From the NCBI GenBank assembly GCA_965250285.1, contig OZ252299.1, positions 1,120,001 through 1,184,000 of the forward strand: a stretch of DNA of 64,000 bases, read 5' to 3'. The position numbers and the translations under genes were made by a program. This document shows positions 10,962 to 51,684 of the stretch, piece by piece; position 1 is the stretch's first letter, and the number at the start of each line of letters is the position of its first letter. A model generated the notes under the pieces. The model was not told the origin of the DNA. It saw only the letters and a list, made by a program, of their open reading frames with translations, and ran no database searches. Source of the stretch: Myxococcota bacterium (GTDB lineage Bacteria; Myxococcota_A; UBA9160; UBA4427).

Positions 10962-13616
<2,655 letters not shown>

Positions 13617-13656: not shown

Positions 13657-13765
13657 GATGAGCCGCGAGACCGAGGTCCGTGCGCGGGCCCGTCGACTGA
13701 TCGAGGTCGCCCGTCTGTCGTGGCGGAGGCGGGGGTGATGAGCCGCGAGATCGAGGTCCGCGTGC
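13657..13765. repeat. Duplicated 5' end of the E2-like gene (80-bp spacing)
   Basis: gatgagccgcgaga(c/t)cgaggtccg at 13657 and 13737. Confidence 0.85.
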
Positions 13766-14922
13766 CCGACATCGGTGACTTCGAGGCGGTCGACGTCGTC
13801 GAGATCCTCGTCGCGCCCGGCGACCGGGTCGCCATCGAAGACCCGCTGGTCAGTCTCGAGAGCGACAAGGCGACGATGGAAGTGCCGAGCCCGGTCGCGG
13901 GCGAAGTGCGTGCGGTCAAGGTCGCGCTCGGTGATGCGGTGAGCGAAGGCTCGCTGCTCGTCGTCGTCGCGGGGAGCGAAGCGGCCGAGCCGGCGCCGGC
14001 CGAAGCGGTGGCCGCGCCGCCGCCCGCCCCGATCGAGCCGAGCCTCGAGTCGAGCGAGGCGACCGCGCCGGCAGCGTCTTCGCCCGCGTCTCCGCCGCTC
14101 GCGCGCTTCGCGCACCCTGCGCCGGCTGAGCCGATGGCTCCGGCCCCGGGCGTCGACCGTCCCGTTCGGTCGCACGCAGGGCCAGGGGTGCGGCGCTTCG
14201 CGCGCGAGCTGGGCGTCGACCTGGCGGGCGTCGAGGGCAGCGGCCCGCACGGCCGCGTGCTCGAAGGCGATCTCAAGCACCACGTGCGCTCGACCTTCGA
14301 ATCGGGCGGGGCCCGCGGCGGAGCGGCCATCGCGGGCTACGAGCGCAGCGCCGACGTCACCGACCTCGAAGCGTGGCGCAGGCGCATTCCGACCCCGAAA
14401 GGTGAAACCGCGCCGCCGACGGCGGCCGTGGTGTTGAAGGCGGCGATCGCCGCACTGCGGGCCTTCCCCGAGCTCGGCGGGGTCGAGGAGGGGCGGCCTC
14501 TGGTCGTGGCGGTCGACGGCGCCGCGGTCGGGGGCACGACGCAGCCCGCCCTCGTCGCGCAGGCCGATCTGCTCGGTGTTCGCGAGCTCGCGCAGGCGCT
14601 GGATACGCCGGCCGAGACGGCCGCCGGGATCGATCCCGTGTTTCGGCTGACGACCGACGAGGGGCGCGGCGGACGGCGCCTGCAGCCGGTGCGGGGCGCG
14701 CGCGAACGCTTCGCGCTCGCGGTGGGGCCCGTCGAGGTCGTGCCGCACTGGACGGGCTCGGCCGACGACGCCATCGAGCCCGACTCGACCGCGGGCTTCG
14801 AGCCGAGGCTCTCGATCCCGATCGCCGTCGATGTGGCCCCCGACGTCGCGCCCGAGCTCGCCGATCGGTTCCTCGACCACTGGGCCGAGATCCTCTCGGC
14901 CCCCGCAAGGCTGCTGCTCTAG
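13738..14922 (+). CDS. AceF-like protein: lipoyl domain + peripheral subunit-binding domain + degenerate acyltransferase domain
   Basis: LESDKATMEVPSP lipoyl Lys; HAGPGVRRFARELGVDL..V.GSGPHGRV; C-terminal domain lacks DHR..DG. Confidence 0.85.
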   Translation: MSREIEVRVPDIGDFEAVDVVEILVAPGDRVAIEDPLVSLESDKATMEVPSPVAGEVRAVKVALGDAVSEGSLLVVVAGSEAAEPAPAEAVAAPPPAPIEPSLESSEATAPAASSPASPPLARFAHPAPAEPMAPAPGVDRPVRSHAGPGVRRFARELGVDLAGVEGSGPHGRVLEGDLKHHVRSTFESGGARGGAAIAGYERSADVTDLEAWRRRIPTPKGETAPPTAAVVLKAAIAALRAFPELGGVEEGRPLVVAVDGAAVGGTTQPALVAQADLLGVRELAQALDTPAETAAGIDPVFRLTTDEGRGGRRLQPVRGARERFALAVGPVEVVPHWTGSADDAIEPDSTAGFEPRLSIPIAVDVAPDVAPELADRFLDHWAEILSAPARLLL

Positions 14923-15034: not shown

Positions 15035-15739
15035 ATGAGCGAGCTCGGATCGGCCATGTGGAAGGCGCTGGGTCTCGTCGCGGGGCTCGACGCCGAATTC
15101 CTCGAGATCGTCGCGCGGTCGATGCAGCTGAGCCTCGTCGCCCTGGCGCTCGCGTGCGTCGTGGCGCTGCCGCTCGGCGCGGCCCTCGCCCTGGCGCGCT
15201 TTCCCGGCCGGGGCGCGATCGTCGTTCTGTTGAATGCCTCGATGGGCCTGCCGCCCGTCGTGATCGGCGTCTTCGTCTACCTGCTGCTCTCGCGCTCGGG
15301 CCCTTTGGGCGGGCTCGGCTGGCTGTTCACGATGAAGGCGATGATCGTCGTTCAGTTCATCCTGATCACGCCGATCATCGCTTCACTGACGCGCCAGACG
15401 ATCGAGGATCTCTGGGGCGAGTATCGCGAGCTGCTGACCAGCCTCGGCGCCTCGAAGCGTCAGTCGATCCCGACGCTGCTCTACGACGGTCGGCACCGAC
15501 TGACGACGGGGGTGCTCGCCGGCTTCGGGCGGGCGATCGGCGAGGTCGGCGGCATCATCATCGTCGGGGGCAACATCGCCCACGCAACGCGCGTGATGAC
15601 GACGGCCATCGCCATGCAGACGAGCAAGGGCGATCTCGAGCTGGCCCTCGCGCTCGGCCTCGTGTTGCTCGCGCTCGCCGTGGCGGTCAACGCCCTCGCC
15701 GCCTGGCTCACGCGTCGCACCGCCGAGGTGTCGGGATGA
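15035..15739 (+). CDS. tupB: Tungstate ABC transporter permease
   Basis: MGLPPVVIG, SRSGPLG, FGRAIGEVG..IIVGGNI...TRVMTTAI. Confidence 0.9.
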   Translation: MSELGSAMWKALGLVAGLDAEFLEIVARSMQLSLVALALACVVALPLGAALALARFPGRGAIVVLLNASMGLPPVVIGVFVYLLLSRSGPLGGLGWLFTMKAMIVVQFILITPIIASLTRQTIEDLWGEYRELLTSLGASKRQSIPTLLYDGRHRLTTGVLAGFGRAIGEVGGIIIVGGNIAHATRVMTTAIAMQTSKGDLELALALGLVLLALAVAVNALAAWLTRRTAEVSG

Positions 15740-16461
15740 GCGGCGGCGACGGGATCCTGCCGCTGCGCTTCGCTTCGGTCGGCTTCGAAGCCGGCGGCCG
15801 CGAGCTGCTCGGCGACATCGACTTCGAGGTCGAGCGCGGCCGGCCCGTCGTGGTGCTCGGCCCAAACGGCGCGGGCAAGAGCCTGCTGCTTCGCCTCGCG
15901 CACGGGTTGATTGAGCCATCGCGCGGCCGGGTCGAATGGCAGGGACCGCAGGGCGACCGCGCCGGCCCGGCGCAGGCCATGGTGTTCGCCGAGGCCGTGT
16001 TGCTGCGTCGGTCGGTGGCCGCGAACGTCGCGCACGCGCTCGGCGTGCGCGGGATCTCGGCGCCCGAGCGCCAGGCGCGCACCCGGCGCGTGCTGGCCGA
16101 CACGGGCCTCGAGGGCCGCGCGGCGCAGCCCGCACGATCGCTCTCGACGGGCGAGAAGCAGCGGCTCGCACTCGCGCGGGCCTGGGCGCTCGAGCCCGAG
16201 GTGCTCTTTCTCGACGAGCCGACAGGCTCTCTCGACCCGGCAGCGACAGCGCAAGTCGAGTCGATCGTCGAACGCCTCGCGGCCGAGGGGCGTCAGATCG
16301 TGATGACGACGCACGATCTCGGGCAGGCGCGGCGCATTGCGGGGCGTGTGCTCTTTCTGCATCGTGGGCGCCTCGTCGAAGACGCGCCGGCCGATGCGTT
16401 CTTCGATGCACCGGCGAGCGACGAGGCGCGTGCCTTCCTCGCCGGCGATCTCGTCTGGTAG
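15736..16461 (+). CDS. tupC: Tungstate ABC transporter ATP-binding protein
   Basis: GPNGAGKS, LSTGEKQR, FLDEPT; ATGA overlap with tupB. Confidence 0.88.
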   Translation: MSGGDGILPLRFASVGFEAGGRELLGDIDFEVERGRPVVVLGPNGAGKSLLLRLAHGLIEPSRGRVEWQGPQGDRAGPAQAMVFAEAVLLRRSVAANVAHALGVRGISAPERQARTRRVLADTGLEGRAAQPARSLSTGEKQRLALARAWALEPEVLFLDEPTGSLDPAATAQVESIVERLAAEGRQIVMTTHDLGQARRIAGRVLFLHRGRLVEDAPADAFFDAPASDEARAFLAGDLVW

Positions 16462-16532
16462 GGGGCCGCCGAGCGGACCGCTCGAAAGCTCGAACGCCAA
16501 AGCAGGAAAGGTTCGACCCGGTGTCGCTTCGT

Positions 16533-17429
16533 ATGCTCCTCTCGATTCGTGTGGCCCTGATCGCGTGTGCCTCGCTCGCCGTCTTCGCTTCGGCTCGGGC
16601 CGACGACACGCAGACGCTCACCCTCGCGAGCACCACCTCGACCGAGAACTCGGGGCTCCTCGGCTATCTGTTGCCGAAGTTCACCGAGCAGACCGGTATC
16701 GACGTGCGGGTCGTCGCAGTCGGGACCGGCGCGGCGCTCGAGCTCGGGCGCAACGGCGATGCCGACGTCTTGCTCGTGCACGACACCGAGTCGGAGGAGG
16801 CCTTCGTCGAAGCAGGGCACGGCGTCGAGCGCGTCGACGTGATGTACAACGACTTCGTCCTCGTGGGGCCGAAGGACGACCCGGCCAAGATCGTCGACAA
16901 GGGCGGGGCGCAGATCACCGTCTCGTTGCGGCGGATCTACTACACGCGCGTGCCCTTCGTCTCTCGCGGAGACGACTCGGGGACCCACAAGGCCGAGCGG
17001 CGCATGTGGCGGCGCTCGGGCAAGAATCCGGTCGCCGGTCGCGACGCGTGGTACCGAGAGACCGGCTCGGGGATGGGGGCCGCGCTCAATACGGCCAATG
17101 CGATGGGGGCGTACACGATCAGCGATCGCGGTACGTGGATCTCGTTCCGCAATCGCGGTGACATGAAGATCGTGATCGAAGGCGACCCGCCGCTCTTCAA
17201 CCCGTACGGCGTGATCCTGGTCAACCCCGAGAAGCACCCGCACGTGAAGGCCGAGGCGGGGCAGGCGTTGATCGACTGGCTCGTGAGCGACGCCGGGCAG
17301 AAGGCCATCGGCGAGTTCCAGGTCGAGGGAGAGGTGCTCTTCCACCCGAACGCGAAGCCGGCGGGCGAGGAGGCGGGGGCACCCACTCCGCCTCCTCCTG
17401 CGCCGAAGCCGAGCGGCGAGGCGGGTTGA
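16533..17429 (+). CDS. tupA: Tungstate-binding periplasmic protein
   Basis: signal peptide, ASTTSTENSGLL, VGTGAAL, YNDF, SRGDDSGTHKAE. Confidence 0.9.
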   Translation: MLLSIRVALIACASLAVFASARADDTQTLTLASTTSTENSGLLGYLLPKFTEQTGIDVRVVAVGTGAALELGRNGDADVLLVHDTESEEAFVEAGHGVERVDVMYNDFVLVGPKDDPAKIVDKGGAQITVSLRRIYYTRVPFVSRGDDSGTHKAERRMWRRSGKNPVAGRDAWYRETGSGMGAALNTANAMGAYTISDRGTWISFRNRGDMKIVIEGDPPLFNPYGVILVNPEKHPHVKAEAGQALIDWLVSDAGQKAIGEFQVEGEVLFHPNAKPAGEEAGAPTPPPPAPKPSGEAG

Positions 17430-29585: not shown

Positions 29586-30593
29586 ATGAGTGATCTGCTT
29601 CAGATCGATGGTGCGAAGCCCGCAGCGCCGCGTGCGCCGAAGCCGCCTTGGCTCAAGGTGCGACTGCGGCAATCAGAGGGGCTCGACGAGACCCGTGCGC
29701 TCGTGCGAGAGCTCGGGCTGAACACGGTCTGCGAAGAGGCGGCGTGCCCGAATCTCGCCGAGTGCTGGGCGTCGAAGCACGCGACCGTGATGATCCTTGG
29801 TCGGGTGTGCACGCGGGCGTGCGCGTTCTGCAACGTCGATACGGGTCTGCCCGAGCCGGGCGTCGACGATGACGAGCCGGCCCACGTCGCTGAGGCGGCG
29901 GCGCGGCTCGGCCTCGAGCACGTGGTGATCACCAGCGTCGATCGCGACGATCTGTCCGATGGCGGCTCGCAGCACTTCGTCCACTGCATCGACGCGGTGC
30001 GCGAGCGCTCACCCGGCACGACGATCGAGGTGTTGACGCCCGACTTCCGACGCAAGGCCGGGGCGCTCGAACGGGTCGCGGCCGCTCGCCCCGACGTCTA
30101 CAACCACAACCTCGAGACCGTCCCGTCGCTCTACCGCCGGATCCGCCCCGGCGCGAACTACCGGCATTCGCTGGCCATCCTGCGACTCGCGAAGCAGGTC
30201 GAGCCGACGCTCTTCACGAAGTCGGGCATCATGCTGGGGCTCGGCGAGACGCGGGACGAAGTGCTGGCGCTGATGGACGACCTGCGTGCCCACGACGTCG
30301 ATTTCGTGACGATTGGCCAGTACCTGCGACCGACGCCGCGCCATGCGCCCGTCGATCGGTACGTCGAGCCCGATGAGTTCGAAACCCTCGCAGAGGAGGC
30401 ACGGCGCCGCGGCTTCCTGCTCGTCGCGTCCTCCCCGTTCACGCGGTCGTCGTACCACGCAGGCGCCGACTTCGCGCGGCTTCAGGCCGCGCGGCGGGCT
30501 CGGATCGCGGGCGGCGCCGAGGCTCCGAAGCCCGGTTCGGGCGCGACCGGCGCCGCGGCTCCGAAGTCGGGTTCGGGCGCGACCGGGATCTGA
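29586..30593 (+). CDS. lipA: Lipoyl synthase
   Basis: [34 protein letters not shown]. Confidence 0.97.
30513..30586. repeat. 36-bp in-frame tandem duplication at the lipA 3' end
   Basis: encodes [12 protein letters not shown] / [12 protein letters not shown]. Confidence 0.85.
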
Positions 30594-50352: not shown

Positions 50353-51684
50353 ATGTCGATCGCACTGGAGCTGCCGTCCCTCGGCGAGAGCGTCGTCGAA
50401 GGCACCGTCTCGCGCTGGCTCGTCGCCGAGGGTGAGTACGTCGAGATGGATCAAGCGATCGTCGAGGTGACGACCGACAAGGTCGACGCCGAGATCCCGT
50501 CGCCGAGCGCCGGTGTGATCGAGAAGATCCTGGTCGCCGAGGGCGACGTGGTCGAGGTCGGTGCGCAGCTCGCGCTGATCGACGCCGACGCGCAGCCCTC
50601 GGCCGCGGCACCCGCCGCATCAGCGGCTCCAGCCCCTGCCCCGGTCGCGCCTGCGCCCACGCCGACCCCCGCGCCCGCACCCGCCCCCCCGCCCGAAGCC
50701 GCGCCCGCGGCGACGCCGGTCGCGCGCCGCATGGCCGAAGAGGCGCGGGTGCCGCTCGATCAGATCGCAGGCAGTGGGGCCGGCGGGCGCATCACCAAGG
50801 CCGACGTCGAGCGGGCCACCCAACCCGAGCCGGCCCCGGTGGCGCCGGCCCCCGCCGCAGCGGCCCCGGTCGCCCCCGCACCGCAGGCAGCGGCGCCGGC
50901 ACCCGCGCGTCCCCCCGTGCCCTCGCCCTCGCCCTCGCGCACGACGGCGAGCAAGCCCGCGTACGCCACGTACGCACTCAAGGAGGGCGACCGCGTCATC
51001 CCGATGACGCCGATGCGCCGGATTACCGCCGAGCACATGGTCTACTCGAAGCACACCAGCCCGCACGTCGGCACGGTGGCCGAGATCGACATGGGCGGCG
51101 TCGCCGACGTGCGCCAACGACACAAGCGCGCCTTCGAGGAGGCGCACGGCTTCGGTCTCACGTTTCTGCCGTTCATCGTGCACTCGGTCGTGCGGGCGCT
51201 GCGCGAGTACCCGGCGCTCAACGCCTCGGTGCTCGAGGACGCGATCGTCGAGAAGCGCGACATCAACGTGGGTCTCGCCGTCGAGACCGAGAAGGGGCTG
51301 GTCGTGCCCGTCGTTCGGCAGGCAGACCGCCTCTCGCTGGCCGGCCTCGCGGCGGCGATCGACGACGTCGCGACCCGAGCACGCAATCGCAAGCTCACGG
51401 CCGACGACCTTCAGGGCGGGACGTTCACGGTCTCGAATCCGGGCCGGAAGGGGAATCTCTACGGCTTCGCGATCATCAATCAGCCGCAGGTCGGCATCGT
51501 GCGCATGGGCGAGATCGTGAAGCGACCGGTGGTGCGCAGCGTCGAGGGGCAGGACGCGATCGTGATCCGGCCCATGATGCATCTCTCCCTCTCGTACGAT
51601 CACCGCGCCGTCGACGGCGCGCCGGCCAACGGCTTTCTGTGGCGGATCCGGGATCTGCTCGAGACCGCAGACTTCGACGTCTAG
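50353..51684 (+). CDS. Dihydrolipoamide acyltransferase E2 (SucB/DlaT-like), catalytically intact
   Basis: VTTDKVDAEIPSP lipoyl domain, PSBD, GGTFTVSNPG, LSYDHRAVDG; AAGGAG RBS. Confidence 0.93.
   Translation: MSIALELPSLGESVVEGTVSRWLVAEGEYVEMDQAIVEVTTDKVDAEIPSPSAGVIEKILVAEGDVVEVGAQLALIDADAQPSAAAPAASAAPAPAPVAPAPTPTPAPAPAPPPEAAPAATPVARRMAEEARVPLDQIAGSGAGGRITKADVERATQPEPAPVAPAPAAAAPVAPAPQAAAPAPARPPVPSPSPSRTTASKPAYATYALKEGDRVIPMTPMRRITAEHMVYSKHTSPHVGTVAEIDMGGVADVRQRHKRAFEEAHGFGLTFLPFIVHSVVRALREYPALNASVLEDAIVEKRDINVGLAVETEKGLVVPVVRQADRLSLAGLAAAIDDVATRARNRKLTADDLQGGTFTVSNPGRKGNLYGFAIINQPQVGIVRMGEIVKRPVVRSVEGQDAIVIRPMMHLSLSYDHRAVDGAPANGFLWRIRDLLETADFDV

Follow-up and report, generated by a model that had tools for sequence, protein, structure and literature searches.

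The described protein closest in design to the one analysed here is E3BP (mammalian PDHX; fungal protein X, 7r5m), which has the same succession of lipoyl domain, subunit-binding domain (PSBD) and dead acyltransferase-fold domain and is derived from an E2 (PMC10156792; this and all later citations refer to excerpts of the papers). In that excerpt, E3BP is presented as a eukaryotic gene and the reason for its catalytic inactivity as unknown, and the fungal protein keeps the first helix and the C-terminus of the old two-fold interface. The PSBD of E3BP is E3-specific, and tethering is split between two E2-type chains. MRPS36, the E3 adaptor of the eukaryotic OGDHC, is likewise a non-catalytic adaptor between a peripheral subunit and the E2 core, but it is small, has no acyltransferase fold and is described in the excerpt as lacking prokaryotic orthologues; the same text treats an inactive paralogue as a eukaryotic strategy (PMC9974300).

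Among bacterial E2s, the AceF of E. coli and Azotobacter (7b9k, 4n72, 1eaa) provides the reference. In E. coli E2p, H603, D607 and S551 are catalytic, helix H1 (R407) is the docking site of the lipoyl domain, and Q443 and E447 lie within helix H2 (PMC8421416); H2 and the C-terminal knob make the two-fold contact between trimers (PMC10849603, PMC8421416). For the E. coli PSBD, five residues in contact with E1 or E3 have been listed, along with V364, a residue of the dimer (PMC10849603). The PDH/ODH complex of Corynebacterium glutamicum (AceE, AceF, OdhA, Lpd) is an earlier example in which the lipoyl domain of one chain works with an acyltransferase site that belongs to a different chain; there the E2 is active and a second acyltransferase is fused to E1o (PMC7568260), and other excerpted work also describes actinobacterial complexes with an active E2 (PMC12995895). 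No precedent for a dead E2 adaptor in bacteria was found in a literature search that covered listings and openings of abstracts outside the subscription journals.

In this study, we analysed a window of 64,000 nucleotides (the whole stretch of DNA examined) from a Myxococcota bacterium. Its genome, G000, consists of one contig of 6.25 Mb and is 95% complete. It was compared with G001, a genome of the same genus, and with the other 66 genomes of the family, in 44 of which AceF was recovered and checked. The original prediction, made from the letters of the window, had proposed that the gene behind aceE encodes a catalytically dead E2, a candidate E3BP-like adaptor that docks AceE and E3 onto the intact E2 at 50353 or passes acetyl groups to another acceptor.

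Anatomy of the aceF product

The features of the window that concern the complex are given in Table 1. In the product of the gene behind aceE, hereafter the dead AceF, PF00364 (E 1.5e-18) spans residues 6-76 and contains ESDKA with K44, and PF02817 (E 1.2e-13) covers residues 146-179, where the PSBD keeps all five E1/E3 contacts and V364; the predicted intact lipoyl domain and AceF-type subunit-binding domain were both recovered, the latter with its AceE-binding residues. PF00198 reaches only E 0.091, compared with 6e-76 for the E2 at 50353. When aligned with intact AceF of the family, Y-D-H-R-V-I-D-G corresponds to V366-A367-P368-D369-V370-gap-A371-P372 and F-T-I-S-S-L-G to F302-R-L-T305-T-D-E, and the C-terminal end LSAPARLLL matches the family's LSHPANLLL. 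Replacement of both catalytic motifs, a shortened C-terminal domain with its end kept and an unbroken frame had all been anticipated and were borne out, the shortening being mainly one deletion of about 40-45 residues that removed the N-terminal elbow and helix H1.

Table 1. Positions, within the window, of the dead aceF gene, its domains and other genes of the complex
Feature	Position	Strand	Evidence
Catalytically dead AceF orthologue (pseudo-E2), 394 aa	13738..14922	+	One open frame, 394 codons
Lipoyl domain, D-K44-A motif intact, K44 codon 13867-13869	13753..13965	+	PF00364 E 1.5e-18; dN/dS 0.046
PSBD with equivalents of E. coli H327, P330, R333, R337, F339 (L), R354 and V364	14173..14298	+	PF02817; motif table against PMC10849603 (excerpt); dN/dS 0.073
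Degenerate acyltransferase-fold domain without elbow and helix H1	14344..14919	+	AlphaFold2; Foldseek; VIA
Helices H2 (DVTDLEAWRRR) and H3, conserved; in E. coli E2p they belong to the two-fold interface between trimers	14344..14475	+	Mean identity 0.88 and 0.87 in six dead homologues
T305 at the catalytic Ser551 position; T, H or R in homologues	14650..14652	+	Alignment
Former D-H-R..D-G motif, now A-P-D-V-A-P, His to Pro368	14836..14853	+	P368 and D369 invariant in 6/6
C-terminal helix and knob (..DRFLDHWAEILSAPARLLL); R391 equals E. coli R627	14845..14919	+	Mean identity 0.83
aceE, homodimeric pyruvate dehydrogenase E1, single genomic copy	10965..13616	+	TIGR00759 1484 bits, cut-off 860; genome tblastn; dN/dS 0.115
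lpd (E3), alphaproteobacterial type, sole lpd over cut-off in the genome	28125..29540	+	TIGR01350; 64.5% to Azospirillum
lipA (by similarity), directly after lpd	29586..30593	+	Similarity
Intact SucB/DlaT-like E2 beside lipB; probably the E2 of SucA	50353..51684	+	PF00198 E 6e-76; TIGR02927 SucB_Actino best, below cut-off

The C-terminal domain was modelled with AlphaFold2 from a 5-sequence alignment (pLDDT 77.9). Foldseek gave E. coli E2p (4n72) as the top match of the model (E 3.7e-11, TM 0.72), and VIA aligned 185 residues of it to E. coli E2p with Z 19.8, starting at about E. coli residue 422-423. The features of an active acetyltransferase are missing, with the DHR motif absent, Ser551 not conserved and H1 and the elbow deleted, and those of an AceF orthologue (lipoyl domain with DKA, PSBD, acyltransferase fold and adjacency to aceE) are present. 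Alignment and model argue strongly that the protein would be catalytically inactive. Relative to the orthologous AceF of E. coli and Azotobacter, the dead AceF keeps the fold, the PSBD contacts, H2, the knob and the neighbouring aceE, but it has lost H603, D607, the D602-R604 bridge, a conserved S551, the elbow and H1; it has one lipoyl domain and there is no lpd in its operon.

In contigs from 4 runs (one study), no indel or base difference occurs within the gene, although the one run that covers it unbroken may be the source of the assembly. An assembly artefact or frameshift was ruled out, the same anatomy being found in G001 and in the proteins P0003-P0006 at 50-75% identity over the domain.

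Several side observations were made around the gene. Its first 23 bases recur 80 bases upstream with 22/23 identical (13658-13738), and this repeat starts a frame of 26 codons, the stop codon TGA of which shares bases with the aceF ATG (TGATG); the gap between aceE and aceF is only about 53 bases in G001, and the repeat looks specific to G000. A tungstate/molybdate-type ABC transporter (permease, ATPase and binding protein; 15037-17429) follows the gene directly, and a permease match also lies near aceF in G012 and G015. A promoter scan gave nothing above chance.

Orthology and selection in the dead clade

A search with the C-terminal domain as the query (7,993 candidates) recovered 5 proteins including the query, and G001 supplied a sixth; as the original prediction had suggested looking for, these are His-less relatives, and the motif is missing in all six. 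A profile search of 1.84 billion representatives returned mostly lipoyl-domain matches and added only P0017 and P0054 as new AceFs, and a scan of metagenomes found at least 80 loci of 26-32% identity, no match among those listed being as similar as the members of the dead clade are. A search of longer proteins for fusions of the dead AceF found none, which is weak evidence. Outside the genus of the window, the motif was intact in 44/44 of the family AceFs checked (of 66 genomes).

In the tree of lipoyl domain and PSBD (one outgroup row of branch length 10 disregarded), the dead clade falls inside the family AceF on a stem of 0.24 (97/99), and the stem is about 2.6 on the tree of PSBD and C-terminal domain, from which the spurious frames L031 and L032 and the partial L030 were left out. 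Only the C-terminal domain went through this burst of change. An extra paralogue was rejected, the dead gene standing at the same locus as the intact family AceF and within its tree, and the gene is, as a correction to the earlier reading, the aceF orthologue itself.

The dN/dS values were calculated by the Nei-Gojobori method, a crude one, from the single pair G000/G001, and amounted to 0.046 for the lipoyl domain, 0.073 for the PSBD, 0.36 for the linker, 0.33 (CI 0.22-0.48) for the C-terminal domain and 0.115 for aceE. These values show that the lipoyl domain and PSBD of the dead AceF are under purifying selection, and a carrier and AceE adaptor retained by selection is, as far as can be read from the sequences, supported. 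That the C-terminal domain evolves as fast as the flexible linker (0.33 and 0.36) counts against strong constraint, in what is one pair of genomes. A normal AceF in close relatives together with a neutrally evolving C-terminal domain had been named beforehand as the outcome that would speak against an adaptor; the former was found outside the genus and the latter was not, given the dN/dS interval and the conservation of the interface helices.

Among the six dead AceFs, mean identity is 0.88 in H2, 0.87 in H3, 0.83 in the C-terminal helix, 0.82 in the PSBD and 0.21-0.56 in the catalytic segments, and the order is opposite in intact AceFs (H2 0.63, H3 0.63, C-terminal helix 0.67, catalytic segments 0.69-0.84). 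Only 21 of 93 family-conserved columns of the C-terminal domain survive in the dead clade. Its invariant sites are clustered, with 47 adjacent pairs against a maximum of 45 in 10,000 shuffles. That 42 of these 79 invariant sites depart from what is usual in the family, as in FLDHWAEI, suggests a new constraint. A recent neutral pseudogene, or an enzyme still transferring acetyl groups by itself, would agree with the small membership of six and is very hard to credit when the frame is open in 6/6 homologues down to 50% identity, dN/dS of the lipoyl domain and PSBD is under 0.1, and the catalytic His, the Asp and H1 are missing in 6/6.

Further AceFs without the arm are known as proteins without genomes, P0017 and P0157 (His to Pro, Ser to Trp) and P0054 and P0155 (Asp lost), which are still about 55-60% identical to intact AceFs and appear to be early stages of the same degeneration. 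A single origin of the arm-less AceFs (dead clade, P0017 and P0054) was not rejected (p-AU 0.079). Dead AceF proteins are misnamed as acetyltransferases in annotation, as in the P0054 cluster.

Two E2s of different origin and their reciprocal loss

Four PSBD proteins were found in G000: the dead AceF, the E2 at 50353, an AcoC-like hydrolase fusion and, outside the window, an orphan E2 of the PdhC/mitochondrial type (C1:3101985), which is intact and best matched by TIGR01349, just under the cut-off. PF00198 matches only two proteins of the genome, neither match being in sucA. The PSBDs of both intact E2s lack H327 and R337, and that of the 50353 E2 lacks V364 as well. The PdhC-type E2 has EKS as its lipoyl motif, and substitutions at the motif Asp lower reductive acylation (PMC6270654). 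Its dN/dS between G000 and G001 is the mirror image of that of the dead AceF, with a relaxed lipoyl domain (0.32) and a constrained catalytic domain (0.13). Since an AceE-type PSBD is absent from the intact E2s and the lipoyl domain of the PdhC-type E2 carries EKS and is relaxed, the dead AceF is likely to be the tether of AceE and the main carrier, and a carrier and tether role is in our view very probable.

The PdhC-type E2 of G000 follows two acyl-CoA dehydrogenase-like genes and precedes a CBS-domain gene and an nqr-like cluster (C1:3099226-3105959), a context common to intact and dead PdhC-type copies in several genera. Two stand-alone, distant PF00198-like proteins of about 280 aa, L285 (G012) and L286 (G022), have a YDER motif and neither lipoyl domain nor PSBD.

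The gene order of Azospirillum is E1a-E1b-pdhC-lpd-lipA, and, whether dead or intact, the PdhC-type gene of genus g14 likewise immediately precedes lpd. No full-length E1-alpha was found in 4/5 of the genomes with intact PdhC tested. In 7/68 genomes there is another lpd, fused to a lipoyl domain and of the kind found in aceE-aceF-lpd operons; of the six with a strong match to this second lpd, 5/6 are without a PdhC-type match and G032 has both. G018 (94% complete), in which neither a PdhC-type match nor the second lpd type was found, fits neither pattern. The aceE-aceF set and the lipoyl-fused lpd are presumably of gamma/beta type. These data fit a chimera in which aceE-aceF came from one source and pdhC-lpd-lipA from another, and in which each E2 is retained to serve the peripheral enzyme that belongs with it.

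Searches recovered the PdhC-type gene from 53 of the 66 other genomes, the remaining 13 giving a partial gene or none, so that its specific gain in the genus of the window was rejected. In 30 genomes its motif is intact (among them a frameshifted gene in G031, one with an in-frame stop in G083 and a fragment in G026), and in 23/66 it is dead, without DHR..DG and the arm with H1 and with the knob kept; the lipoyl Lys motif is retained in the dead copies wherever that part was recovered. His is changed to Pro in 9/9 of the dead g14 cases. The dead loci are L225:5087-6460 (G029), L241-L249, L281-L284, L294-L300, L304, L305 and L314, nine of them directly upstream of lpd, and the dead PdhC-type E2s next to lpd are, as judged by sequence, the closest bacterial analogues of E3BP. 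On the AceF tree (41 genomes; G006, G007 and G021 left out, the PSBD missing from their stretches), the intact or dead state of the PdhC-type E2 needs 4 changes, i.e., about four losses.

Of the 23 genomes whose PdhC-type E2 is dead, 22 have an intact AceF, and from the other one, G081, AceF was not recovered; the situation is reversed in the genus of the window, with AceF dead and the PdhC-type E2 intact. No genome has both E2s dead, a comparison that on the AceF side comprises one lineage with genomes (2 genomes). Both are intact in 30 genomes, and the intact PdhC-type E2 in the genus of the window could be chance. The median dN/dS of the AceF catalytic domain is 0.108 where the PdhC-type E2 is dead (9 pairs) and 0.22 where it is intact (5 pairs; disjoint pairs from 16 computed); the difference is not significant (p 0.06) and suggestive only. 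The dead PdhC-type domain is heavily eroded in some lineages, with dN/dS up to 0.6 and G033 as an example, and this erosion fits slow loss. Of all segments, the knob is the one best preserved in dead AceFs and dead PdhC-type E2s alike.

As to the partner of the dead AceF, the original prediction of the E2 at 50353 is not favoured by the evidence, which speaks for the orphan PdhC-type E2, and we regard the latter as a fairly likely partner. Docking of AceE and E3 on the SucB/DlaT-like E2 at 50353, in a PDH/ODH hybrid as in Corynebacterium, is rather improbable: this E2 is intact, DlaT-like and strongly conserved (dN/dS 0.048 between G000 and G001), and the AceE of C. glutamicum has an E2 of this kind as its partner (PMC7568260), but SucA has no other obvious E2, no lineage-specific change distinguishes the genus of the window from 11 relatives except one His codon in G001, and reciprocal losses and gene order concern the PdhC-type E2. 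The exception is YDPR for YDHR in the SucB/DlaT-like E2 of G001 (L067:8270-8281, codon CCC), which is a difference of one base and could be an assembly error; the motif is intact in 11/12 of the family copies aligned. If real, it would leave the PdhC-type E2 as the only intact PF00198 enzyme found in G001, and as the sole active E2 there. Compared with C. glutamicum, SucA here has no PF00198 domain and the carrier E2 is dead.

It is also quite improbable that AceE and the dead E2 make no acetyl-CoA, the acetyl-lipoyl group being hydrolysed or passed on (e.g. to the aco-like lipoyl-PSBD-hydrolase) and pyruvate being oxidised by a ferredoxin oxidoreductase. G000 does have two alpha subunits of 2-oxoacid:acceptor oxidoreductases and an AcoC-like hydrolase, the latter also present in G001, but both systems occur in relatives with intact AceF as well and so do not track the loss, and the reciprocal losses would be left unexplained. 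The aco-like cluster of G000 (C1:1336717-1340019) comprises E1-alpha, E1-beta and a lipoyl-PSBD-alpha/beta-hydrolase fusion without an E2 catalytic domain; it is also found in G018, G028 and G033 (L315-L317) and, by Pfam matches, in G001.

A possible mixed core and its meaning

The reading that we mildly favour as a whole is that the active-site-less AceF is a likely carrier and AceE tether in a chimeric PDH, from which acetyl groups would likely pass to the PdhC-type E2, with the C-terminal domain predicted to dock through a two-fold knob-into-hole contact. AceE, held on a PSBD that is likely dimeric, would acetylate lipoyl-K44; binding and acetylation by AceE are suggested by the dead AceF being the sole E2-type protein of the genome with an AceE-type PSBD. 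The arm would carry the acetyl group to the active site of the PdhC-type E2, which would bind the alpha-type Lpd and supply the transacetylase in the genus of the window, and the PdhC-bound Lpd would reoxidise the arm. Both E2s would be needed as tethers and one catalyst would be enough, so that either could lose catalysis. H1 may have been the first element to go, as lipoyl domains dock on it and would be trapped at a dead site.

Docking of the dead domain, which would likely use the knob and H2, on the PdhC-type core is a prediction from sequence for which we see an even balance. To our knowledge, co-assembly of cubic-type and icosahedral-type E2 domains is not known. A carrier and tether that does not dock is unlikely, yet the strongest competitor: the C-terminal domain would self-associate as a dimer or small oligomer or slowly erode, and acetyl would be delivered in trans to any E2 met. 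Its dN/dS equal to that of the linker, tips about four times longer on the PSBD and C-terminal tree than on the lipoyl and PSBD tree, and the gradient of erosion among dead PdhC-type domains would all agree with this, as would the self-trimerisation of fungal E3BP through the old two-fold surface (PMC10156792) and the non-specific anchoring of lipoyl domains on E2 (PMC8421416). Against it stand the 42/79 invariant positions off the family consensus and the knob as the segment kept best in the two dead groups.

More generally, and with confidence a little short of even, we propose two co-assembling E2s of different origin, AceF tethering AceE and PdhC tethering E3, with repeated conversion to a dead adaptor (about four times in PdhC, one to three times in AceF) by deletion of H1 and change of His to Pro, the knob being kept.

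The comparison with E3BP stands in part. By alignment and model, the dead AceF likewise appears to have an inactive C-terminal domain homologous to acyltransferases; it resembles the fungal protein in the parts of the old two-fold interface that are kept, and tethering would again be split between two E2-type chains. Where E3BP binds E3, the PSBD of the dead AceF carries gammaproteobacterial E1/E3-contact and dimer residues and would tether E1, so that the protein would be a mirror image of E3BP. Its rise took place within a bacterial family and started from two E2s that had come from different sources, not from a duplication, and it does not descend from the eukaryotic E3BP lineage, as it nests in the bacterial family AceF, in trees that were built without E3BP sequences.

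The dead bacterial E2s are likely to be a bacterial parallel to E3BP, which has been thought to be confined to eukaryotes. The family provides independent bacterial origins of dead E2s in both directions, together with relatives in which both E2s are intact and half-way forms, so that the causes and the course of an E2's conversion into an adaptor can be tested with small recombinant proteins. If the proposed conversions are real, the family would contain bacterial E3BPs and, in the genus of the window, the first E1-binding mirror image, and would replay the origin of eukaryotic E3BP with its intermediates. The complex of this bacterium would then be a PDH whose lipoyl arm belongs to one E2 chain and whose transacetylase site belongs to another, unrelated one, and in which domains of cubic and icosahedral type may be mixed.
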